From positions 14,339 to 78,338 of the forward strand of contig CAYXNZ010000002.1 in assembly GCA_964467155.1 (NCBI GenBank): a DNA stretch of 64,000 nt. Reading direction: 5' to 3'. A program made the translations under genes and the position numbers. The stretch comes from an uncultured Gammaproteobacteria bacterium. GTDB lineage: Bacteria; Patescibacteriota; Patescibacteriia; Patescibacteriales; GWC2-42-12. The first letter of the stretch is position 1, and each line of letters opens with the position of its first letter. Positions 29,338 through 52,787 of this stretch are shown piece by piece. The notes beneath the pieces are model-generated. The model was not told the DNA's origin, made no database searches, and worked only from the letters and a program-made list of their open reading frames with translations.

Positions 29338-29423
29338 GCCGAGATAGCTTCCCGCTAGCTAGCGGGACAGGCAGTTTCCGCCAGAGGCGGACCAGCCTTT
29401 GGCTGGGGTAGATCACAACATAT
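29338..29423. repeat. GC-rich triple-hairpin element beginning with a 12-nt duplicate of the tRNA-Thr 5' end
   Basis: gccgagatagct at 29339-29350 is identical to 29424-29435. Three consecutive palindromes follow: cccgcta-gc-tagcggg, ccgcc-aga-ggcgg, ccagcc-ttt-ggctgg. Confidence 0.6.
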
Positions 29424-29801: not shown

Positions 29802-29814
29802 TACCTCACCCCAG

Positions 29815-29838
29815 CCCCTCTCCTAATTAGGAGAGGGG
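29815..29838 (+). terminator. Perfect 9-bp GC-rich hairpin (cccctctcc-taatta-ggagagggg) after rpmG; likely terminator or processing site
   Basis: Perfect palindrome read directly. No clean T-run follows, so terminator function is uncertain. Confidence 0.4.
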
Positions 29839-30222: not shown

Positions 30223-30771
30223 ATGAGTAAAATTACCGTAGAACAGATCGGCGAGCTGGTTGAGCAAAGCAAGGGTGAGAATCCTCGGGTAACCAGGGAG
30301 ATCCTGCAGGCTTTCCTGCGAAACCCCAACGCCTTTCTGCGGGCAAGCGTTTATTCAGCTACCGTTGATTACGGGAAAAGCGTTGAGGAAATGGTTGTCG
30401 CCGGCAACTACGACTGGAAAAACAAAGACATCAATTCCAAAAACTTTCCCGTATCAGGTGAGGGAACGGTCAACGTCAATTTCGAGTTGATCCACCTCAA
30501 CAAGGGAGTTAGCTCCGAGGATGCTTTGACCCACCTCGAAGAAAACGGGATGAGGCCACCGACAATTGAGGAATTACTGGTGTTCGGCTCCAGTTACCCC
30601 GAAATCCAGCGGGAATTTCCGGTTATTTGCCTCGGCTCGTCTTGGGTTAATCCCGGCGGCGACCGTTACGTGCCTTACCTCAACGGGAATGGTTCGGAGC
30701 GTGGCCTCGACCTCGGCTGGTTCGACGATGACTGGAATGGGTACTGTCGTTTTCTGGCCGTTCGCAAGTAG
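30223..30771 (+). CDS. DGR target (variable) protein; the C-terminal ~46 aa are encoded by the variable repeat
   Basis: AAAGGAGCGG SD. GC-rich coding sequence. The 3' 139 bp is near-identical to the TR, with mismatches only at TR adenines. C-terminus ...SSWVNPGGDRYVPYLNGNGSERGLDLGWFDDDWNGYCRFLAVRK resembles CLec-fold DGR variable regions. Confidence 0.85.
   Translation: MSKITVEQIGELVEQSKGENPRVTREILQAFLRNPNAFLRASVYSATVDYGKSVEEMVVAGNYDWKNKDINSKNFPVSGEGTVNVNFELIHLNKGVSSEDALTHLEENGMRPPTIEELLVFGSSYPEIQREFPVICLGSSWVNPGGDRYVPYLNGNGSERGLDLGWFDDDWNGYCRFLAVRK
30631..30769 (+). repeat. DGR variable repeat (VR)
   Basis: 139-bp alignment with the TR (31142-31280). 14 mismatches, all at TR adenines (A to G 11, A to T 2, A to C 1). 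Identity ends exactly at ...gttcgcaagt. Confidence 0.9.
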
Positions 30772-30786
30772 GATCTTGTCGCCTTG

Positions 30787-30818
30787 TGTCCTTGGAACTG
30801 GAACTTTGTCCCTTGGAC
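30787..30818 (+). promoter_or_regulatory. Hairpin 18 nt downstream of the VR (gtgtcc...ggacac); candidate DGR homing-enhancing stem-loop
   Basis: Inverted repeat gtgtcc / ggacac. Its position just 3' of the VR matches the cruciform element described for the Bordetella phage DGR. Confidence 0.4.
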
Positions 30819-31141
30819 ACTTGGCAACTTGTAACCTCACAACAAAAACCCCGCACGTTTTATGCTTAGAAAAGCAGACGACGAGCGGGGTTATTTATTT
30901 TGTGATATAATAAATTTGGAAAGTAAACGAATCAGCTCACGGCTACGGTTGCGGGCGGTTGAAATCTGGATACTGCAACAAGTGAGATTATCCAAGGTTA
31001 CGGCTTTGGGTAGAGTGCCGTTGCAATATTCCATAAAATAAAAATACTTGGTATAAGATATCAGTGGGATAATAGCCCCGAATAAAATACAGCCCCGAGA
31101 GTATTCAAAGGGCGGTGGCAAAGACGATATCTTATTATTTT

Positions 31142-31280
31142 AACGGCTCGTCTTGGGTTAATCCCGACGGCAACCGTAACGTGCCTTACCTCAACAGGAA
31201 TGGTTCGAAGCGTAACCTCAACCTCAACTGGTTCGACAATGACTGGAATGAGTACTGTCGTTTTCTGGCCGTTCGCAAGT
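31142..31280 (+). repeat. DGR template repeat (TR)
   Basis: Invariant, A-rich copy of the VR located between the target gene and the RT. Followed by the ctccc-atac-ggggag hairpin plus a T-run. Confidence 0.9.
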
Positions 31281-31284
31281 CTTT

Positions 31285-31605
31285 TCATTCTCTCCCATAC
31301 GGGGGAGTTTCTTTTTTATAAAGCTTCATCCAACCGCCTATCATTCTGCCGATCTCGGCAAGTGGGGCGGATATGGCTGTCAATTTGTTTGTATCAATCG
31401 CTTTTATTTCCCAAAGAAGCTTCAAGAAGAATTTGAGCATATCAAATCTTGCGTTAAGTTCTTTTATCGTGTCGGCCTTTTTGTCTTTCGGCTGATAGCT
31501 TGCCCGCAGAGCAATTGCCAGACAATCGGTAAATAGATTATCTATCTTTTTACCCAAAGTGAAGCGGGTAATTTTCGGCAGATGAATTAAAAAAGAATGC
31601 CACAT
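31285..31605 (-). CDS. avd: DGR accessory variability determinant (Avd-like four-helix-bundle protein), inverted relative to target/TR/RT
   Basis: LNARFDMLKFFLKLLWEIKAI and LAEIGRMIGGWMK align with bAvd (LAMLRFWLRFLAGI, IAEVGRILGSWI). The frame stays open upstream through a C10 tract with no canonical start, so the N-terminus is uncertain. Confidence 0.65.
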   Translation of the reverse strand: MWHSFLIHLPKITRFTLGKKIDNLFTDCLAIALRASYQPKDKKADTIKELNARFDMLKFFLKLLWEIKAIDTNKLTAISAPLAEIGRMIGGWMKLYKKETPPYGRE

Positions 31606-31655
31606 CTGATATGCCTCACTTAATTTGGCGATAATCGGAATATCGCAATTGCTGA

Positions 31656-31665
31656 GGGGGGGGGG
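31656..31665. repeat. G10/C10 homopolymeric tract between avd (minus) and the RT start
   Basis: gggggggggg read directly at the divergent avd/RT junction. It lies inside open frames on both strands. Confidence 0.9.
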
Positions 31666-31687
31666 TAGACTTATAAGCTTTTTGTGT

Positions 31688-32692
31688 ATGAAGATTAAAT
31701 TGATTCATAGTTATAATGATATTATTTGCGTTAATAATTTGTTTTCGGCTTGGAATGAATTTATTGTCGGTAAAAAATCTAAAAAAGATGTGCAGGAATA
31801 TTCCCGCAATCTTCTTGATAACATTATATCACTTCACGAAGATTTGGCTAATAAATCTTATCGGCACGGTGGGTATCACAGTTTTTACATCAATGACCCA
31901 AAACGCAGGCACATTCATAAAGCGAGCGTGCAAGACAGATTGCTTCATCACGCCGTTTACCGCCTGCTGTATCCGTTTTTTGAGAAAACGTTTATCCACG
32001 ATTCATATTCTTGCCGTTTGGAAAAAGGCGTGTATAAAGCGATTGAACGATTTGATGCCTATGCTGGCAAGACAAGCAAAAACGATACCAAGACGGCATG
32101 GATATTAAAGTGCGACATTAAAAAATTTTTCAATAGTATTGTCCATAAAACCTTACTGGAAATTTTAAACAAACACATTCCTGACAAAGATATAATATGG
32201 CTTTTGAATAACGTCATAGACAGTTATCATAATACAAACAAGAGAGGCGTCGGCTTGCCACTCGGTAATTTGACTTCCCAGCTGTTTGCTAATGTATATA
32301 TGAATGTTTTTGATCAGTGGGTTAAGCACAGATTAAAGATTAAGCGGTATATAAGATACGCAGATGATTTTGTATTTTTCAGCAGAGATAAGCGACAGCT
32401 CCATTCTTTGATTGAGCCAGTTGGAGAATTTTTGTTTCAAACATTAGGTTTAACACTTCATCCCAAAAAGATTATCAAAAAGTCATTGTCGTCCGGCATG
32501 GATTTTTTGGGTTGGGTGCATTTGACTCACTATAAAAAATTACGGAACAAGACAAAAGAGCGGATGTTTAGAAAAATAGCCGACGATCCTAGAGATGAAG
32601 TTTTCCAGTCATATCTGGGGCTTTTAAGCCACGGCAATACTTACAAAATTGAAAAAGAATTGCGTAACCTTTATTGGCTTTTAGGAGATTAA
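31688..32692 (+). CDS. DGR reverse transcriptase
   Basis: RT motifs in order. The DGR-specific motif-4 variant LPLGNLTSQLFAN (LGxxxSQ) and YADDFVFF are present. Start at ATG 31688 (MKIKLIHSYNDIICVNNLF...). The track start at 31625 would read through the G10 tract. Confidence 0.85.
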   Translation: MKIKLIHSYNDIICVNNLFSAWNEFIVGKKSKKDVQEYSRNLLDNIISLHEDLANKSYRHGGYHSFYINDPKRRHIHKASVQDRLLHHAVYRLLYPFFEKTFIHDSYSCRLEKGVYKAIERFDAYAGKTSKNDTKTAWILKCDIKKFFNSIVHKTLLEILNKHIPDKDIIWLLNNVIDSYHNTNKRGVGLPLGNLTSQLFANVYMNVFDQWVKHRLKIKRYIRYADDFVFFSRDKRQLHSLIEPVGEFLFQTLGLTLHPKKIIKKSLSSGMDFLGWVHLTHYKKLRNKTKERMFRKIADDPRDEVFQSYLGLLSHGNTYKIEKELRNLYWLLGD

Positions 32693-45433: not shown

Positions 45434-46234
45434 ATGAAAGTGGTGCACATACAATTTAATCCGTGGGATAGAATTTATGATTTCGACTTAGGTGACTTTA
45501 GTCTATTAGTAGGAGATTCAGTGATAGTTAAAACTGAAATGGGGACAGAAATTGGCAAGGTAATTAGTTTCAAAAATTTATCTGAGGAAGAAATAGAAAC
45601 AAGACCAGAAATAAAGCCAGTTCTTCGTAAAGCCACTTCAATTGACATTGAAAAAATACCTGATGAAAAGCAGAAAAAAAGAGATTTGGAGTTTTGTAAA
45701 AAATCAGCTGTTAAACATGAATTACCGATGAAGCTAGTTGACATACATTATTCTTTTGACGGGGCACGAATAACTTTTGCTTTTATTGCTGACGGCCGAA
45801 TTGATTTTCGTGAATTAGTTAAAGACTTAACTAGGCATTTCAATAAGACAATTCGTTTACAACAAATAGGTATTCGCGATGAAGCAAAGCTCATGGGAGA
45901 TTTTGGTCATTGCGGACGACCATTATGTTGCGGCCAGTTTTTGGGAGATTTGGAATCAATTACATCAGAAATGGCTGAAGCACAACAATGTGTTCATCGA
46001 GGTAGCGAAAGAATTTCTGGTATTTGTGGTCGTTTAATGTGTTGTTTGGCCTTTGAAAATAAAGGCTATGAAGAAATGAGTAAGAAATTACCAGCTGTTG
46101 GAGAAAAGATTAATTACCAAGGTAAAAAATGTGCTGTACTTGCACAACATATTTTGAAACAAACAGTCAGTGTAGAATCAACAGGAGACAATGGTGATAG
46201 GGTAGTAATTGAAGTTGATATGAAGGATAAGTAA
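45434..46234 (+). CDS. PSP1 C-terminal domain protein (RicT/YaaT-like)
   Basis: N-terminal YDFDLGDFSLLVGDSVIVKTEMGTEIGKV and Cys-rich C-terminal HCGRPLCCGQF...GICGRLMCCLAFE as in the PSP1/RicT family. Confidence 0.6.
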   Translation: MKVVHIQFNPWDRIYDFDLGDFSLLVGDSVIVKTEMGTEIGKVISFKNLSEEEIETRPEIKPVLRKATSIDIEKIPDEKQKKRDLEFCKKSAVKHELPMKLVDIHYSFDGARITFAFIADGRIDFRELVKDLTRHFNKTIRLQQIGIRDEAKLMGDFGHCGRPLCCGQFLGDLESITSEMAEAQQCVHRGSERISGICGRLMCCLAFENKGYEEMSKKLPAVGEKINYQGKKCAVLAQHILKQTVSVESTGDNGDRVVIEVDMKDK

Positions 46235-46257
46235 TTTTTTTATATTTTAGATATTTA

Positions 46258-46292
46258 AGACCGCTTTTTCGAAAGAAACAGCGGTCTTTTTG
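46258..46292 (+). terminator. Rho-independent terminator after the PSP1-domain gene
   Basis: agaccgc-tttttcgaaagaaaca-gcggtct followed by TTTTT. Confidence 0.7.
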
Positions 46293-46369
46293 TATAAAAA
46301 TTTATTGATCTAAATGTGTTTTATGTTTAATAGTATAATTTTGGTTTATATTATAACATTTTTTGTTAA

Positions 46370-46560
46370 TGCGTTGCCACGCAGGCCTACTTTTTGTAAC
46401 TCCGCCAGTATGGGCGGACAGGCGCCAAGTAACCAAACCTGCCTGCCGGTAGGCAGGAAGTTTTGGGGTGCTTTATTCCCCGCCAGTCGGCGGGGTAAAC
46501 GCTACTAAGCTCAGGCCTGTCCCGCAGTATTGCGGGAACGCACCCCAAACCCCAACTTAC
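46370..46560. other. GC-rich multi-hairpin element in an AT-rich intergenic region; unclassified ncRNA or repeat cluster
   Basis: Nested palindromes: ccgccagtatgggcgg; cctgcc-tgccggta-ggcagg; ccccgccagtcggcgggg; cccgcagtattgcggg. The last two are enclosed by a long-range pair ttggggtgc...gcaccccaa. Shares the CGCCAG core with repeats at 29377, 59891 and 61005. Confidence 0.4.
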
Positions 46561-46709
46561 CATAAAAATTATAGGTAGTTCTAAAATTATTTTACCTAAT
46601 TTAGGTGTCCTTTTGTATTAAATTAAGCTTGGGAGTAGAATGTAGCATGTTACTATTGACAAAATATTGAAAGAATTAGCGGTTTTTTGGTGCGAAAGAC
46701 CGCTTTTGC

Positions 46710-46738
46710 TTGACAAAATATTAAAAGTATGCTATAGT
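46710..46738 (+). promoter_or_regulatory. Consensus promoter TTGACA-17-TATAGT upstream of the secreted-protein gene at 46798
   Basis: ttgaca aaatattaaaagtatgc tatagt. A second TTGACAAAATATTGAAAG copy lies at 46656 without a good -10. Confidence 0.6.
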
Positions 46739-46797
46739 TTTATATTGATCTTTTAATAATAAAAATAGATAGATAAAAACTTTAAGGAGGTTTTACC

Positions 46798-47082
46798 ATG
46801 AAGAAAGTTTTATTTTTAGCAGTTATTGTTTTGACATTAGTGGTCGTCAACCCGGTTTTTGCAAACGAGGGCGTTGACTTTGAGGACTTGCCGGAGAATA
46901 TCACTGTTTCAGCAGTATATTTTCTGGATGGAGACATTGTTTTTGTGCAGAAAGACGTTGGTACCGTCCAGTCGTGTTCTGCACCAACAAAATACAGAAT
47001 GACGGAATGCGGTAATACTATGATATTATCGCAATTACCCCAAAATGGTGGCAAAGTAGTCAGAATACATTTCAAAAGATAA
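46798..47082 (+). CDS. Small secreted protein (94 aa) with signal peptide
   Basis: TAAGGAGG SD. N-terminal MKKVLFLAVIVLTLVVVNPVFA signal peptide (AxA-like cleavage site). Confidence 0.6.
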   Translation: MKKVLFLAVIVLTLVVVNPVFANEGVDFEDLPENITVSAVYFLDGDIVFVQKDVGTVQSCSAPTKYRMTECGNTMILSQLPQNGGKVVRIHFKR

Positions 47083-47103
47083 ATAGAAATGATCTTGGCT
47101 AAG

Positions 47104-47141
47104 GCGGGATTCGACTCTACATCGAATACCCGCTTTTTTAT
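47104..47141 (+). terminator. Rho-independent terminator after the 46798 gene
   Basis: gcgggat tcga ctctaca tcga atacccgc followed by TTTTTTATTTT. Confidence 0.65.
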
Positions 47142-47198
47142 TTTCTAAAAAAATTGTGCTATAATTATGTTATAAATTTAATAATTAATAATATAAAT

Positions 47199-48212
47199 AT
47201 GAATATTGTTATCAATGGGTTCGGAAGAATCGGCCGAGCGGCTTTTAAAGTATTACTTGAGAAAAAAGGTGATTTTAAAATTGTCGCCATTAACGATTTA
47301 ACCGACACAAAAACTTTAGCGCATCTTTTTCGTTTTGATACTTGCTATGGAGAATATGAAAAAGCAGTTGACTATACTACTGATAGTTTAATTATTGGTA
47401 ATAAGAAATTCAAAATTTTAGCTGAGAAAGACCCAAGTCAATTACCGTGGCGTGAAATGGATGTTGATATAGTTTTGGAATGCACTGGCCGATTCAGAAC
47501 AAAAGAAGAAGCTAATTTGCATATCAAAGCAGGAGCGAAAAAAGTTATTATTAGTGCGCCAGACAAAGGAGAAAAAGAAATAAAAAATATAGTCTTGAGT
47601 GTTAATGAAGATAAAATTAAAAAGACTGACAAAATTTTATCAATGGCATCGTGTACGACAAATTGTCTTGCGCCAGTAACAGATATTATCAGGCAGAATT
47701 TTGGTATCAAGAAAGCAATCATGACGACTATTCATTCATATACATCTGATCAGAATATTGTCGATGGTCCACATAAAGATTTACGCCGGGCACGAGCAGC
47801 AGGAGTTAACATTGTGCCAACAACCACTGGGGCAGCAATTGCTACAACAAAAACAATTCCACAACTAAAGGGGAAATTTGATGGTATGGCAGTGAGAGTA
47901 CCAACTGTTGTCGGGTCATTATGTGATATAGTTTTTATCACCAATAAAAAAGTTGATGAAAAAATGGTGAATCAAGCGTTCAAAAAAGCTGTTCGTGGAG
48001 CTCGTTATAAGGGGGTAGTAGATGCAACAGACGAACCTCTAGTTTCTTCAGACTATATTGGTCATCCAGCTAGCGCTATTGTTGATTTGTCTCTAACAAA
48101 AGTAGTTGACGGTGATTTGGTTAAGGTAATTGCTTGGTATGACAACGAATGGGGCTATTCAAATCGTTTAGCAGATTTGTGTGAACATTTGGGCAACAAA
48201 AAATTAATCTAA
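47199..48212 (+). CDS. gap: Glyceraldehyde-3-phosphate dehydrogenase
   Basis: INGFGRIGR NAD-binding motif and active-site ASCTTNCLAP. Start at ATG 47199, because the track start at 47154 overlaps the TGcTATAAT -10 box. Confidence 0.9.
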   Translation: MNIVINGFGRIGRAAFKVLLEKKGDFKIVAINDLTDTKTLAHLFRFDTCYGEYEKAVDYTTDSLIIGNKKFKILAEKDPSQLPWREMDVDIVLECTGRFRTKEEANLHIKAGAKKVIISAPDKGEKEIKNIVLSVNEDKIKKTDKILSMASCTTNCLAPVTDIIRQNFGIKKAIMTTIHSYTSDQNIVDGPHKDLRRARAAGVNIVPTTTGAAIATTKTIPQLKGKFDGMAVRVPTVVGSLCDIVFITNKKVDEKMVNQAFKKAVRGARYKGVVDATDEPLVSSDYIGHPASAIVDLSLTKVVDGDLVKVIAWYDNEWGYSNRLADLCEHLGNKKLI

Positions 48213-48246
48213 TTTTTCTATATACAAAATGCTCAAGGAGGAGTGA

Positions 48247-48278
48247 AAACAATCCTAAAATATTCGGGATTGTTTTTG
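48247..48278 (+). terminator. Rho-independent terminator after gap
   Basis: aaacaatcc-taaaatattcg-ggattgttt followed by TTTGTC. Confidence 0.65.
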
Positions 48279-48345
48279 TCTAGCCCCCTCTCTAGCCCTC
48301 CAATCCGGCGGGCAGGCCTCCTCTGTTCTCCCGAGCACTCGGGAT

Positions 48346-48460
48346 CACGGGAGAGGGAATTTACCCCCTCCCTAGCCCTCCCCCGTTCGTTCCTCACGGG
48401 AGAGGGAATTAACCCCCTCCCTAGCCCTCCCCCGTTCGTTCCTCACGGGAGAGGGAATTA
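48346..48460. repeat. 49-bp direct tandem repeat, 2.3 copies
   Basis: cacgggagagggaatt[t/a]accccctccctagccctcccccgttcgttcct repeated at 48346-48394 and 48395-48443, plus a 17-nt partial copy. Units abut with no unique spacers. Confidence 0.9.
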
Positions 48461-48479
48461 ATATAAAGAAGATAATTAA

Positions 48480-48824
48480 ATGAGTAAAAAGGTAAAAATA
48501 CAGTTGGCTCGTGAATTTAGGAAAAGTCCCACAAAATCAGAAAAAATTATGTGGGATGAATTAAGAAGAAATAATTTTTTAAAGTTAAATTTTAGAAGAC
48601 AGCATTTGATTGAAGGTTTTGTAGTTGATTTTTATTGCCACAAATTAAAATTAATTATAGAGATAGACGGTAATATACATGAATATCAACAAGACGAAGA
48701 CGAAGAAAGACAAAAAATAATAGAGCAAAAAGGAAATGTATTTTATAGGATAAAGAGTCAAGACGTAGAAAACAATATAGAAAATATTTTAAGCAAATTG
48801 ATTGATTTTATTAATTTTATATAA
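48480..48824 (+). CDS. DUF559 domain protein (very-short-patch-repair endonuclease-like fold)
   Basis: REFRKSPTKSEKIMWDELRRNNF...FRRQHLIEGFVVDFYCHKLKLIIEIDGNIH matches the DUF559 pattern (REFRKNPT..E..LW..LR....FRRQ..I..YIVDFYC....L.IE.DG..H). Confidence 0.7.
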   Translation: MSKKVKIQLAREFRKSPTKSEKIMWDELRRNNFLKLNFRRQHLIEGFVVDFYCHKLKLIIEIDGNIHEYQQDEDEERQKIIEQKGNVFYRIKSQDVENNIENILSKLIDFINFI

Positions 48825-48931
48825 CTCCCTCTCCTGCCCGCCGAATCGGCGAGGCGGGGGAGGGTTGGGGAGGGGGTAAATTATGAAAAATTTGCTATAA
48901 TAAAAGTAAATAATTTTTTAAAATAAAAACC

Positions 48932-49402
48932 ATGAAAAAAATCTTAATTATTGTTGGTAGTATTTTGGGTGCTATTTTGGTTGTTGGGATAATTTTTTTA
49001 ATTCAGACGAGAGTAATGATTAACAGGGGTCAACTAATAAAATGGGAGGGGGAGATATATACACAAGCAGAGTTTAGAGAAAAATTTCCGCCAGAAGGTA
49101 CGGAAGTGCCAGCAAAAAACACACCAGAAGATGTTTATGAGACTTTCAGACAGGCGTTATTAAATAGCGATATTGAAACTGCTTTATTGCAAATCAGAGA
49201 AGAAAAGAGAAACGAATATCAAATTGCTTTTGAGAATGTGCAGAAATTAGGTGAATGGGTTAAAATTTTGCCCATAGAAATAATAGAAGAAAGAGTAGAT
49301 GGCAATTTTGCTTATTACGATATTGATTACAGCACGGAATATAAAAATTCGATTACTTTTATTAAAAACCAAGAAGGTTATTGGCAAATAGATATAATTT
49401 AA
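48932..49402 (+). CDS. Hypothetical membrane-anchored protein (156 aa)
   Basis: N-terminal TM/signal anchor (ILIIVGSILGAILVVGIIFLI). No motifs recognised. Confidence 0.5.
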   Translation: MKKILIIVGSILGAILVVGIIFLIQTRVMINRGQLIKWEGEIYTQAEFREKFPPEGTEVPAKNTPEDVYETFRQALLNSDIETALLQIREEKRNEYQIAFENVQKLGEWVKILPIEIIEERVDGNFAYYDIDYSTEYKNSITFIKNQEGYWQIDII

Positions 49403-49412
49403 TTTTAAAAAT

Positions 49413-52400
49413 ATGTTTACAAGAAGGAGGCTTGTTTTTTTATTGTGTTTTTCTTTTTTATTTTTTGCGGTTTGTGTTTTGTCTTATGACAATTTGATTA
49501 CTCATCCGAAGCTAACAGAATCAGCAATTAATATTTACGAGCAGGAAGCTGGTAAATATTTAAATTATCAACAAACAAATTGGATTATTAAAGGTTCAAT
49601 TGATGAAGACAATGATCCGCGGTATTTAAACCATTTTTATAACCCACAAACTGGGCGAGGGCTAAACGATGGTTGGTTTCATGGTCAATCAGCTAAAAAT
49701 TGGGCATTTTCTCAAGATAGTGCTACTGGCGATTATTCAGTTGGCGCTATTTTTAATAATTATAGAAACGGTGATTTAATGCGTGCTTATCAGGGTATTG
49801 GCCATATTTTACATTTAATTCAGGATATGAGCGTGCCGGCACATGTTAGAAATGATGCTCATCCAAGCGGCGACCCGTTTGAAGAATGGGCAGAACATTA
49901 TGGGACAATAAACGCTGACAAAATACAAAAAATAAATATCAATAGTATAGAAAATGTTTTTGATGATTTAGCTTTTTTTACTAGTAATAATTTTTTTAGT
50001 AAAGATACAATTGTAATTGAAGAATTGGATAAATATAAAATAGATGAGGAACTAATTGACAACAGAAAAAGGTTTTATTTGATTAATAAAATAGATAAAC
50101 AAGAATATAAATTAGTATATTCAAAAAATCCAGATTCCATAATGCCAGTTTTTCAAATTGATGATGATTTTAAATTAAATCTTGACTATTGGAATATGCT
50201 TTATCCAAAAGCAGTTGGGTATAGCGCGGGCGTGATTGAATATTTTATTAAAGAATTTAAAAAGATAGATCAAGAGAAAAATGAAACAACAATAAGTTTA
50301 TGGCAAAAGATAAAAAATAGCACAAACAATCTTTCTTCAGATTTAGCTTATACGTGGGGCGATACTTTTATTGATAGTAGGATTAGATTAGATAATATTT
50401 TAGCAAGTGCGTTTAGTGGATATACTAAAAGTCAACAAGGATTTGAATTTTTTGCTGAAGCTAATAGAGAAATTTTAACTGATTTAAGTCAAAGGAGTGT
50501 AAATATTGCTCAAAATTTGTCTGGCAAGGTATTATCGGCAGAGGATACCATTTCAAAACAACAGATTCAGACAAAAATAGAAACAGAAGTGATTCAAGAT
50601 TTGAAAAAAAATAATCCAGATGTGGCCAGAGTGATTGATGGCGATACAATTGAATTAACTACTGGTGAAAAAGTTCGTTATATTGGCATTGATACACCAG
50701 AATTAAACAGCGAAGGATCAGATGACGATGAATGTTTAGCTTGGCTAGCCAGATTAAGAAATATGGAGCTTTTAAGCATGGGCGAGTTAAAATTAGTAGA
50801 AGATTCAACTGCCAAGACAGATAAATACGGCAGATTATTGCGTTATGTTTATATAAACAATTTGTTCGTTAATGACGTATTAGTTAAAGAAGGATTAGCT
50901 GAAATATTTTTTTGCCAACCAGGCTGGGAAAATTGTCCAGTAACAACAGATAAAAATAAAGAGAATATAATCAAAGCTTCAAACCAAGAAGCTAAAAATA
51001 ATGCTAGAGGAATTTATTCTGGCGTTTGCGATAAGGAAGATGAGCCTGAAAAAGAAATTATTAAAAAATTTGAAGATAAAATTGAAGAAAAAATAATCTT
51101 GGAAGAAAAATTTATAGAAAATAATACAGCTAGCACGTCAACGTCAACAATGATGCAATTACCTCTTGTTTGCGCGCCAGCTCATAATAATGATTCAGAT
51201 AACACAAATGTTGTTGTTTCAGAGATAGCGAATTTTTCTGTTTTTGATATAACTTCAAGTAGTACTAATATTATTGCCAGTACTACCGTTGGATTAAGTT
51301 ATACAATTAGCAATCAGGAAGCAGTCGAAGGATATTTTTTGTCAGAAGCTTCTACAACACCCGCAATTGACGATGCTAGTTGGGAAACTACTGCGCCAAG
51401 TCAATTTGTTTTATCAAGTAGCGATGGTAAAAAAATAATTTATTTTTGGTTAAAATATAATAGTGATAATATAACAAATTTTGTCAGTTCAACAATTATT
51501 CTAGATACAACAGCGCCGACAATGCCAATGATTACTAGCATAGAACCGTTAAGTGATATTTATTGGGTAAATACTAGTGAAGTTTTGTTAAGCGGAGAAA
51601 AAGAAATTGGAGTTGATGCGATTTTGATAAATGGTGTAGCATATAGTGCGACCAGCAGTGAAGAAACATGGAATGTTAATTATACTTTTGATTTTATTTG
51701 TTCTGACTCAAGCTCCTGGGGTAATTTAGTTGCTTATGATTGTATGACTGAATATTGCAATGGACATAAAGAAGAATGCGATGGTTTGAGTGATGAAGAG
51801 ATGAGAGTATTTTTTTATGAAAGAGAATTGATTTTAAAAGCGAAAAATGAAGCAGGTAATTATTCAGAAGAAGCTGAAAAAGTTTTTAGATTGGATAATT
51901 TTTTGCCAAAAATTTGGGGAGCATTATCAACTAAATCAATTCCCAGTAGTTTTGTGTATTTTTATATGTCAAATTTAGAAGATTTTATGTCGGATTTATT
52001 GTTTTTTAATTCCGGTGTGAGCGGGTATGAGTTTGAATATAAATTTAATGATTCAGAAGATTGGGTTGTTGGAGAAATTGTCGAGGTTAATTATCCTAAC
52101 GCGACTCTTCGGGCAGTATTGTCAGATGAAGGTAATTTTGATTTACGTTTTAGAATGCTTGATTTTGCTGGTAATGTTGGCGAGTGGTACGAAGGTTTGA
52201 CGGCGGAAGTTAATTTTTATCCGGTAATTAGCGAAATTTATATGGATGAAATTAATAGTGGCAGTGAATGGATAGAGCTTTATAATCCATCGGTCAGTGA
52301 TATTGATATCGGTGGCTGGGTAATTGATACCAAAGCAGACGAAGAGGCCGACGTTACTTTGCCAGATGACGCGATAATTCCGGCTTATGGATTTTATTTT

Positions 52401-52787
52401 ATCGGCGATCAAGTATCAGGAGAATGGAATCCCGATAATGTTGACTGGATAGTTCCAGACTACACCGAGACTATGACATTGACAAATGACGATGGCTGGG
52501 TTAGGTTGAGAAAAAGTACTGGTGGTGAAATTGTTGATACAGTTGGTTGGCAGAAAACAAAAGTTAAAGCAGAAGTTTATGAAGGCAGAGAAGTTAATAC
52601 TTTTGGTTGTAAAGAAGGTTATAGTATTGAAAGGTTAAATATGTTACAAGTACTTTCTGATAACACAGATCTTTATCAAAATAAAGGGAATAATTTTGAT
52701 AGGAATTATAATAGCGGGGATTTTGTTGTTAGAGAAACACCCAATCCACAAAATAGTTCGTCAGCAGTTGAAGGGGCGGGGGATTAA
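49413..52787 (+). CDS. Large secreted multidomain nuclease: N-terminal zinc-dependent phospholipase C / S1-P1 nuclease-like domain, central staphylococcal-nuclease (SNase) domain, C-terminal lamin-tail domain
   Basis: Signal/TM at the N-terminus. HFYNPQTGRGL and GIGHILHLIQDMSVPAHVRND (compare B. cereus PLC HFYDPDNGKTY, LGLSLHYLGDVNQPMH). SNase motifs VIDGDTIELTTGEKVRYIGIDTPE...KYGRLLRYVYI...LVKEGLAE. LTD motif VISEIYMDEINSGSEWIELYNPS...IGGWVI. Confidence 0.7.
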   Translation: MFTRRRLVFLLCFSFLFFAVCVLSYDNLITHPKLTESAINIYEQEAGKYLNYQQTNWIIKGSIDEDNDPRYLNHFYNPQTGRGLNDGWFHGQSAKNWAFSQDSATGDYSVGAIFNNYRNGDLMRAYQGIGHILHLIQDMSVPAHVRNDAHPSGDPFEEWAEHYGTINADKIQKININSIENVFDDLAFFTSNNFFSKDTIVIEELDKYKIDEELIDNRKRFYLINKIDKQEYKLVYSKNPDSIMPVFQIDDDFKLNLDYWNMLYPKAVGYSAGVIEYFIKEFKKIDQEKNETTISLWQKIKNSTNNLSSDLAYTWGDTFIDSRIRLDNILASAFSGYTKSQQGFEFFAEANREILTDLSQRSVNIAQNLSGKVLSAEDTISKQQIQTKIETEVIQDLKKNNPDVARVIDGDTIELTTGEKVRYIGIDTPELNSEGSDDDECLAWLARLRNMELLSMGELKLVEDSTAKTDKYGRLLRYVYINNLFVNDVLVKEGLAEIFFCQPGWENCPVTTDKNKENIIKASNQEAKNNARGIYSGVCDKEDEPEKEIIKKFEDKIEEKIILEEKFIENNTASTSTSTMMQLPLVCAPAHNNDSDNTNVVVSEIANFSVFDITSSSTNIIASTTVGLSYTISNQEAVEGYFLSEASTTPAIDDASWETTAPSQFVLSSSDGKKIIYFWLKYNSDNITNFVSSTIILDTTAPTMPMITSIEPLSDIYWVNTSEVLLSGEKEIGVDAILINGVAYSATSSEETWNVNYTFDFICSDSSSWGNLVAYDCMTEYCNGHKEECDGLSDEEMRVFFYERELILKAKNEAGNYSEEAEKVFRLDNFLPKIWGALSTKSIPSSFVYFYMSNLEDFMSDLLFFNSGVSGYEFEYKFNDSEDWVVGEIVEVNYPNATLRAVLSDEGNFDLRFRMLDFAGNVGEWYEGLTAEVNFYPVISEIYMDEINSGSEWIELYNPSVSDIDIGGWVIDTKADEEADVTLPDDAIIPAYGFYFIGDQVSGEWNPDNVDWIVPDYTETMTLTNDDGWVRLRKSTGGEIVDTVGWQKTKVKAEVYEGREVNTFGCKEGYSIERLNMLQVLSDNTDLYQNKGNNFDRNYNSGDFVVRETPNPQNSSSAVEGAGD

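Follow-up and report, generated by a model that had tools for sequence, protein, structure and literature searches.

The locus analyzed here raises the question of why a small nuclease gene should lie between GC-rich inverted repeats in an otherwise AT-rich stretch of chromosome, and whether such a gene serves its host or itself. The locus is located in a 64-kb stretch of contig CAYXNZ010000002.1 (hereafter the window, i.e. the whole stretch that was analyzed; 33% GC overall), and consists of a gene for a 114-aa protein of the DUF559 family, together with its repeated flanks, bordered on one side by the 3' end of gap and on the other by the promoter region of an open reading frame (ORF) for a 156-aa membrane-like protein. 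From the nucleotide sequence of the window it had been proposed (the original prediction) that the gene and its flanks constitute a small homing, selfish or miniature inverted-repeat transposable element (MITE)-like cassette rather than a housekeeping gene. In the current work, we assign a probability of roughly 0.6 to the locus being a selfish nuclease cassette bounded by inverted three-block repeats of the BoxC/PIT/TM family. That the cassette was mobile is well supported; how it moved is what we infer below.

The selfish character that had been proposed is upheld by an end architecture conserved in many phyla, by differing gene neighbourhoods, by in-frame inserts in host genes and by an empty site in a methionine synthase gene. 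Beyond the original prediction, the inverted repeats correspond to the known BoxC/PIT/TM repeat, a solitary canonical copy of which is also present in the window. Knowledge of BoxC/PIT/TM repeats goes back to the 1990s, and hundreds of bacterial genomes contain them, but we know of no gene to which their origin or spread has been traced; the small nucleases of the DUF559 family are very widespread, and to our knowledge no function has been assigned to them. The domain and the repeat were thus known already, and what is apparently new is their association, the cassette architecture and the in-frame colonization of host genes. Through their physical link, both acquire a role that can be tested: the nuclease is predicted to be structure-specific and to have a defined substrate, and an explanation is offered of the genome instability reported at these repeats.

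Organization of the cassette

The cassette measures 593 bp and comprises the DUF559 ORF, preceded by three left-end units in tandem and followed by a single inverted right-end unit (Table 1), its boundaries being set by analogy with the filled and empty junctions of the methionine synthase insertions described below, in which an outer C-block and an outer G-block form the termini. The flanks have a GC content of 56-66%, versus 24-28% for the ORF and 33% for the window. Three parts are recognizable in each end, namely a block rich in C, a C-rich/G-rich hairpin and a G-rich block in mirror image, the left units representing the reverse complement of the right-end design. As single-stranded DNA, each unit forms its own hairpin and leaves its third block unpaired, and for this reason the ends look both direct- and inverted-repeated.

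The imperfect inverted repeats that had been noticed around the gene were recovered as three inverted pairs (Table 1), and the sequence core said to be common to the inverted repeats and the tandem units, CCCCCTCCCTAGCCCTCC, is indeed found four times in the 64 kb (at most 3 mismatches), always within the cassette, where dinucleotide shuffles expect 0.00 occurrences. As for the predicted 2.3 copies of a 49-bp unit on the left side, the array is real (2.4 copies according to Tandem Repeats Finder, TRF), with the refinement that it is a register-shifted view of three complete end units. The long loop of unit 1 contains a sub-hairpin, TCCCGAG/CTCGGGA, and a segment (48300-48316) that is an inverted copy of the right-end loop (48833-48849). 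The hairpin of unit 2 has a predicted folding energy of -8.6 kcal/mol on the + strand and -10.6 kcal/mol on the - strand (z -2.4 and -2.6, respectively), and that of the right end, whose stem contains T.G pairs at positions 6 and 9, reaches -17.8 kcal/mol (z -4.3; 0/200 shuffles as good). The terminal inverted repeats have a consensus that is common to the window and to the homologous loci L087, L088, L091 and L174.

No transposase (DDE, HUH/Y1 or serine/tyrosine recombinase) is encoded by the cassette, the 114-aa DUF559 frame being its sole ORF. An Rfam search over positions 46200-48950, both at gathering thresholds and at E<=1, gave no match save a sub-threshold tmRNA fragment which was taken as chance. 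The same locus is present in six metagenome contigs that are base-for-base identical where covered, two of which begin inside the cassette; contig L003 is shorter by a single 49-bp unit, the array is interrupted by a contig end in two cases, and many contigs end at the element, as is expected of a repeat.

Table 1. Coordinates of the cassette, its components, its neighbours and the solo repeat in the window
Feature	Position	Strand	Composition or basis
gap	47196-48212		Pfam Gp_dh_N/C
Whole cassette	48284-48876	+	End repeats and ORF; boundaries by analogy with methionine synthase
Left-end unit 1 (outermost)	48284-48357	+	CCCCCTCTC-TAG-CCCTCC-47-nt loop-GGGAGAGGG
Left-end unit 2	48364-48406	+	CCCCCTCCC-TAG-CCCTCCCCCG-loop-CGGGAGAGGG; BoxC/TM-type, antisense orientation
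Left-end unit 3 (ORF-proximal)	48413-48455	+	Matches unit 2; orthologous to the single left unit of L087 (44/47)
DUF559 nuclease gene (114 aa)	48480-48824	+	Pfam PF04480
Right-end unit	48827-48876	+	CCCTCTCC-paired extension-GGGGGAGGG-TT-GGGGAGGGGG (mirror-image third block); sense orientation
Tandem array	48345-48461		Period 49, 2.4 copies, 98% matches, score 227 (TRF)
Inverted pair	48358-48385 / 48855-48882		28 nt, 93% complementary
Inverted pair	48284-48301 / 48859-48876		18 nt, 83%
Inverted pair	48300-48316 / 48833-48849		17 nt, 88%
156-aa membrane-like ORF	48932-49402		Downstream of the cassette
Solo canonical BoxC/TM repeat	29804-29838	+	CCTCACCCC-AG-CCCCTCTCC-TAATTA-GGAGAGGGG; 0 mismatches, 0.01 expected by chance

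The DUF559 protein

The assignment of the 114-aa product to a DUF559 protein with a Vsr fold was corroborated at the level of both sequence and predicted structure. The product matches Pfam PF04480 (DUF559) with E=5.6e-28 and 97.4 bits (cut-off 20.6) over profile positions 4-108 of 109. An AlphaFold2 model derived from 49 homologues (pLDDT 87.6, pTM 0.81) was compared by Foldseek with known structures, the nearest being 3HRL, a DUF559 protein of N. gonorrhoeae (E=1.7e-7, TM-score 0.73/0.88), followed by the catalytic domain of I-Bth0305I (3R3P; E=5e-5, TM-score 0.64-0.75; sequence-level E=0.034) and, as third, Vsr (1VSR; prob 0.93). According to this model, the product has a Vsr/restriction-endonuclease-like alpha/beta fold of the PD-(D/E)xK type. 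Residues E21, W25, Q41, D50, E61, D63, G64, D74 and R77 are invariant in the 49 homologues and H67 is at least 90% conserved, this histidine and the invariant D50, E61, D63 and D74 representing the predicted acidic/His set of the active site.

Relationship of the ends to BoxC/PIT/TM repeats

By sequence, the cassette ends belong to the intrastrand-triplex repeat of E. coli and cyanobacteria named BoxC, PIT or TM. This relationship was found by a literature search with sequence strings. The motif matches the TMECO/BoxC entries that Holder et al. (2015; PMC4666352) list in their Table 1, where 23 TMECO motifs of E. coli K-12 are given, e.g. CCCTCTCCCTGTGGGAGAGGGCCGGGGTGAGGGC; BoxC and PIT are earlier names of the TM repeat. 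The same paper describes formation of a triplex by the E. coli TM motif in vitro, as seen by circular dichroism, nuclear magnetic resonance and dimethyl sulfate footprinting. TM repeats were furthermore reported to mark loci rearranged between strains, being rearrangement hotspots in E. coli, and transposase or integrase remnants were 'never found' near them by the authors (PMC4666352).

The cassette ends have the three-block design of these repeats (a pyrimidine block, a complementary purine block and a mirror-repeat purine block) and a nearly identical sequence, CCCTCTCCC-loop-GGGAGAGGG-nn(n)-GGGGTGAGGG, and further common traits are a high GC content that persists in AT-rich genomes, a location that is for the most part intergenic, and an occasional arrangement as inverted pairs; the solo repeat of the window fits the published consensus. 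They differ in that they represent a variant with third block GGGGAGGGGG, in that the hairpin has a long paired extension, and in that the left end is tandem-triplicated. Linker 2 is 2-3 nt in the cassette, and the first loop has a length of 11-22 nt, which rises to 47 nt in unit 1, versus 1-6 nt in the ITxF definition; in the right end this loop is itself base-paired, leaving a 3-nt apical loop. Moreover, whereas the repeats are orphans in the literature that was searched, here they constitute the two inverted ends of a nuclease cassette.

A neighbourhood of both constituents also exists in E. coli K-12 (NC_000913.3), which has 23 TM repeats and one ycjD, annotated as DUF559, with TMECO #9 (1351204-1351239) located 168 nt downstream of ycjD. 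Within this region (L172, 1351204-1351760), ycjD ends in a degenerate BoxC hairpin, which is followed by a partial duplicate (~45 nt) of the gene's own 3' end and then by TMECO #9. The full fabI-TM-ycjD-sapF segment was found in 3346/5426 complete E. coli genomes, while the rest (~2000, ~38%) match from the fabI side only; in APEC E19019, the one short-match genome examined, ycjD and the repeat are both missing and the interval is filled by an efflux operon (a TetR regulator, a resistance-nodulation-division pump, an outer-membrane subunit and a major facilitator superfamily transporter). In the literature covered, which left most subscription journals outside, no link of DUF559, ycjD or Vsr-like genes to BoxC/PIT/TM was found, and neither was the cassette architecture or the in-frame colonization of conserved genes.

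Association of the ends with DUF559 genes in other genomes

Eighty loci from unrelated genomes, chosen solely by protein motifs, were compared with 80 control loci centred on gap genes. Within 200 nt of the DUF559 core, the density of hairpins whose 5' arm is C-rich amounts to 4.28/kb, versus 0.31/kb in the rest of the same loci (~14x) and 0.03/kb beside gap in the controls, the DUF559 flanks thus being ~130x denser. At least one hairpin is present near DUF559 in 66 of the 80 loci, and in 36 of them hairpins are present on both sides. The recurring layout is GCCCTCACCCC-nnn-CCCCTCTCCC-loop-GGGAGAGGGG, followed by the ORF and by CCCCTCTCCC-loop-GGGAGAGGGG-nnn-GGGGTGAGGGC. This arrangement of C-block and hairpin, ORF, and hairpin and G-block was encountered in Patescibacteria, Chloroflexi, Margulisbacteria, Bacteroidota, Planctomycetota and others, and it holds in genomes of 29% to 70% GC. 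The orientation of the third block (26:14 upstream, 11:19 downstream; Fisher p=0.03, obtained with a crude block detector) has a modest bias in the expected direction. Many predicted homologues carry N- or C-terminal extensions of the type 'P.PSP...GEG' which are translated hairpins; the association accounts for these odd annotated extensions and may explain why contigs often end there.

Multiplication of the left (5') end unit is not confined to the window, tandem arrays of 2 to 4 units being present in L046, L062, L063, L088 and L091, i.e. in several unrelated cassettes. A multiplied right end was not seen in the flanks that were read, which constitutes a left/right asymmetry.

The family was also matched in mobile vectors, namely in 2 phage-like and 17 plasmid records, mostly cyanobacterial plasmids. 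Phages and plasmids as the vehicles of the cassette were rejected, as such records are few and the family is mainly chromosomal.

In-frame insertions in host genes

In 7 of the 80 loci, a single open frame runs through a host gene, both ends and the DUF559 core. Pfam assignments place DUF559 within methionine synthase (MetH; L068 and L085), leucyl-tRNA synthetase (LeuRS; L084), OMP decarboxylase (PyrF; L023), an N6_N4 methylase (L074) and MmeI/Eco57I-type enzymes (L081, and L042 with two copies). In the MetH of L068, ~186 residues are inserted between the positions of residues 689 and 694 of T. thermophilus MetH (PDB alignment). A search with the 'spliced' MetH segment retrieved insert-free orthologues of up to 87% identity, whose empty site reads ..DIDEIINRGDFPTKHETAV.. 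(..NRGDFPTKHE..) as compared with ..DIDEIINRS[insert]STHEVAV.. in the carriers. Both the repeats and the gene are missing from this empty site, and at the DNA level the insert extends precisely from CCCTCACCCC to GGGGATGAGGGC, these being the outer repeat blocks. Presence/absence polymorphism with a clean empty site is therefore seen for family members in MetH, and units of the DUF559-cassette family have inserted at new sites, including in-frame positions in conserved genes.

In the L068 and L085 inserts, each flank combines one antisense with one sense unit, and the flanks are direct repeats of one another; these direct repeats are composite repeats and not host sequence, so that they do not represent a target duplication. 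The DUF559 core within MetH is under purifying selection, with nonsynonymous differences (pN) of 0.154 versus synonymous differences (pS) of 0.965. Judging from the MetH, LeuRS and PyrF copies, a nuclease gene can apparently live in essential proteins without an intein or intron.

The complementarity of the outer blocks of the two ends and the occurrence of the cassette inside conserved genes would also be compatible with an RNA-level, intron-like element, the ends of which pair in the transcript such that the cassette is spliced from host mRNAs. Such an explanation is hardly credible, however, since all intragenic cases (7/7) maintain an open frame through the ends and the DUF559 core, a continuity that would be unnecessary with splicing, and since no group I/II intron or other Rfam match and, in the insert-bearing proteins, no Hint/intein domain (Pfam) was found. 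Long-range pairing of the outer blocks, acting as a closing helix like that of an intron, was rejected in favour of local triplex or terminal inverted repeat roles, since the reading frame is maintained in intragenic copies.

In L042 (22-5574; Anaerolineae), the two in-frame DUF559 cassettes are located in an 1850-aa MmeI/Eco57I-type restriction-modification ORF that in addition contains more than 10 in-frame solo repeat peptides of the type PTPGPSPSGGGE.

Gene and ends as one travelling unit

Close homologues of the DUF559 protein (59-84% identical) were found in six different neighbourhoods, one of which is gap, those of 59-70% identity adjoining atpG (L088), rsmA/TSP3 (L091), lepA-recJ (L174), an NYN gene (L176) and murG (L178). 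Homologues that are at least 64% identical share the variant outer block of the window, CCCCCTCCC / GGGAGGGGG, and the more distant L178, L008, L009 and L010 use the canonical outer block. A T.G pair at position 6 of the right-end stem is present in four independent lineages (window/L087, L088, L091 and L174). The window itself holds one cassette (with its four units) and one solo repeat, the latter being located between a short ORF (putative rpmG, L33) and tRNA-Trp with no nuclease gene adjacent to it. Considering that this solo repeat is canonical and the cassette ends are variant, the ends came with the gene and not from the local repeat pool. The DUF559 gene and its ends travel together as a unit.

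These observations bear on the alternative that two independent elements are involved, BoxC/TM repeats being autonomous, MITE-like and moved by some other enzyme, of the host or acting in trans, with DUF559 as a passenger or neighbour. In that case the repeats would gather beside DUF559 genes, or DUF559 genes would insert beside the repeats. Solo repeats far from DUF559, as seen in the background of the 80 loci, at 29804-29838 and in the 23 repeats versus one ycjD of K-12, would be in line with such independence, as would the third-block orientation, which is not uniform. We nevertheless consider independence quite improbable: the variant ends follow the DUF559 protein clade across six contexts while the solo repeat of the same genome is canonical, the MetH empty site is free of both repeats and gene with the outer repeat blocks as insert termini, and hairpins are enriched ~14-fold relative to the same loci and ~130-fold relative to the control gene.

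In the right ends of the window subfamily (window, L088, L091 and L174), the third block GGGAGGGGG mirrors the purine arm GGGGGAGGG exactly, and the cost of this symmetry is the T.G pair at stem position 6, where the arm of canonical repeats has A and their third block T. The two purine blocks seem to co-vary, which fits a triplex. The T.G mismatch was rejected as a general Vsr substrate, canonical repeats having a T-A pair and the E. coli 'mm' types G.A, which means that the mismatch is not family-wide.

The gap locus in related contigs

In the metagenome contig L087, PSP1, gap and DUF559 occur in the same order as in the window, the gap protein being 95% and the DUF559 protein 84% identical. 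The ratio of nonsynonymous to synonymous substitution rates (dN/dS) of the DUF559 gene between the two is 0.085 (dS 0.99), and the right end (52/52 nt identical) and the ORF-proximal left unit (44/47) exceed in identity the neutral adjacent spacers (83-85%); on account of these values, the protein and the ends are both constrained, and both are under purifying selection. Only a single left unit is present in L087, and the triplication in the window is therefore lineage-specific. The cassette entered the spacer between gap and the 156-aa ORF before the split from L087, was vertically inherited since, and is accordingly an old insertion.

The original prediction had pointed to possible empty sites between gap and the downstream gene, and none was found in one metagenome scan with the gap protein, whose output was dominated by the universal WYDNEWGY pattern and contained no relative above 71% identity. 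L087 is filled, and the best of those relatives, L092, has retained EF-Ts-PSP1-gap and lacks DUF559; as its downstream gene is a different one, L092 represents absence and not a clean empty site.

Synteny with L087, the stability of the hairpins and the position of the right hairpin, directly 3' of the DUF559 stop codon, could be accommodated by a housekeeping Vsr-like repair gene whose GC-rich flanks act as structured mRNA leader and terminator. This is very unlikely, considering that the right hairpin is not followed by a T-run and that a promoter/terminator scan gave no terminator-like and no + strand promoter-like site, in keeping with earlier work, cited in PMC4666352, in which PIT/BoxC had no promoter or terminator activity in E. 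coli. In addition, the same ends flank copies that are in-frame inside ORFs, they have no Rfam match, and DUF559 is absent from the gap locus of L092. Conserved synteny, when combined with an absence of such inverted repeats elsewhere, was what the original prediction would have taken as the mark of an ordinary gene with a structured leader; synteny is conserved with L087, but sequences of the inverted-repeat type are abundant elsewhere, and the refutation therefore fails.

Alternatively, the nuclease may have been domesticated, i.e. it may derive from an old, now immobile insertion and serve the host, for example by processing or repairing BoxC/TM hairpins or triplexes or in defence, its ends being regulatory or substrate sites. 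The dN/dS value, the vertical inheritance shared with L087 and the single copy in 64 kb agree with domestication, and an enzyme acting on TM repeats could matter to the host, these repeats being rearrangement hotspots in E. coli (PMC4666352). Still, domestication is unlikely, as close homologues occur in six contexts, in-frame insertions in essential genes are hard to square with a host-driven function, ycjD is missing from the examined short-match E. coli genome and ~38% of the complete genomes are without a one-piece match on the ycjD side, and active selfish homing endonucleases show purifying selection as well.

Proposed mechanism

For the selfish cassette, we propose that the DUF559 nuclease would recognize the repeat in a structured form (hairpin, cruciform or triplex) and nick or cut it. 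Host recombination or gene conversion would then copy the cassette into other sites that are broken or carry a repeat, and the 35-55 nt ends would act both as recognition sites and as short homology arms. The tandem multiplication of the left end could result from slippage or from repeated repair at the hairpins, and recombination between the two flanking hairpins could generate solo repeats. No frame of the C-rich and G-rich blocks is interrupted by a stop codon, and in suitable frames the ends would be translated as Pro/Ser...Gly/Glu linker peptides; being stop-free and linker-coding, they would allow cassettes to survive inside ORFs.

A broader proposal, made tentatively and with the odds somewhat against it, is that DUF559 nucleases are the missing protein partners of BoxC/PIT/TM repeats across bacteria, that is, structure-specific enzymes acting on hairpin or triplex ends which spread a gene-plus-ends cassette, leave solo repeats behind and also colonize essential genes in-frame and unspliced by means of linker-translated ends. 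DUF559 would then explain BoxC/PIT/TM repeats in the way that REP-associated tyrosine transposases (RAYTs) explained repetitive extragenic palindromes (REPs).

A number of findings weigh against the selfish cassette reading. With respect to mobility, no target-site duplication was seen by eye at the outer junctions of the window, L087, L088 and L091 cassettes, ~19 nt of host sequence were replaced and not duplicated at the MetH junction, and strand transfer is beyond the capacity of a 114-aa nuclease acting by itself. The window bears no sign of recent activity, having just the single cassette and the single solo repeat, its synteny with L087 has been kept, and the metagenome scan gave no empty allele of its own site. 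As regards the coupling of gene and ends, ~14 of the 80 loci are without a hairpin within 200 nt of DUF559, the bias in third-block orientation is not absolute, and E. coli genomes that lack ycjD still keep solo repeats.

Comparison with other systems

The REP/RAYT system resembles the cassette in having a single-copy nuclease-type gene between inverted, short, GC-rich hairpin repeats and solo copies elsewhere. RAYTs are HUH/Y1 transposases of the IS200/IS605 type, whereas the cassette protein is a Vsr-like PD-(D/E)xK nuclease of ~110 aa and not a Y1_Tnp protein, and REPs are extragenic, whereas the cassette family also occurs in-frame inside genes.

I-Bth0305I, a Vsr-like 'EDxHD' homing endonuclease (3R3P), has a related catalytic fold and is similarly encoded by a selfish gene that resides inside conserved host genes with presence/absence polymorphism. 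It is located in a self-splicing group I intron and possesses extra DNA-binding regions, whereas the cassettes are without intron or intein (Rfam, Pfam), are bounded by structured inverted repeats and stay as an unspliced insert. It is possible that the cassette protein is a homing endonuclease of a free-standing type.

Rickettsia palindromic elements share with the cassette family the palindromic repeats and the in-frame residence of selfish DNA in genes without known splicing, and they differ from it in that they encode no protein. A further parallel is provided by phage 'ShiLan', for which PMC11855218 describes an in-frame homing insert with a hidden endonuclease, again tolerated without known splicing. 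The ShiLan insert encodes an HNH nuclease in one phage methylase, which sets it apart from the PD-(D/E)xK nuclease, BoxC-type ends and many phyla of the cassette family. Unlike both the Rickettsia elements and the ShiLan insert, the window's own copy of the cassette is intergenic.

Other features of the window

Upstream of gap, a GC-rich island within 46250-47150 contains four to five short hairpins at 46367-46561, including CCGCCAGTATGGGCGG, CCTGCCTGCCGGTAGGCAGG, CCCCGCCAGTCGGCGGGG and CCCGCAGTATTGCGGG, for which Rfam gave no match. The island and a 94-aa ORF (46798-47082) fill ~960 nt between PSP1 and gap, and as the corresponding spacer in L087 measures only 115 nt, this appears to be a second insertion/deletion difference between the two. 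The hairpin CCTGCCTGCCGGTAGGCAGG is also present in the left-end loop of L010 and upstream of the L053 cassette. Short GC-rich hairpins in the style of this island (CCCGCTAGCTAGCGGG, CCGCCAGAGGCGG and CCAGCCTTTGGCTGG) are furthermore located at 29340-29412, directly upstream of tRNA-Thr.

A probable diversity-generating retroelement is present at 30223-32692. It comprises a 182-aa GC-rich putative target ORF (30223-30771), of which the 3' end (30633-30769) is repeated at 31144-31280 (137 nt, 91%) as fits a variable repeat/template repeat pair, a 106-aa minus-strand ORF (31285-31605) that is possibly Avd-like, and a 355-aa ORF (31625-32692) with a YADD motif that encodes a putative reverse transcriptase.

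Two genes downstream of the cassette, a protein of 1124 aa (49413-52787) combines staphylococcal-nuclease and lamin-tail domains with a weak zinc-phospholipase-C match that is below the Pfam cut-off.

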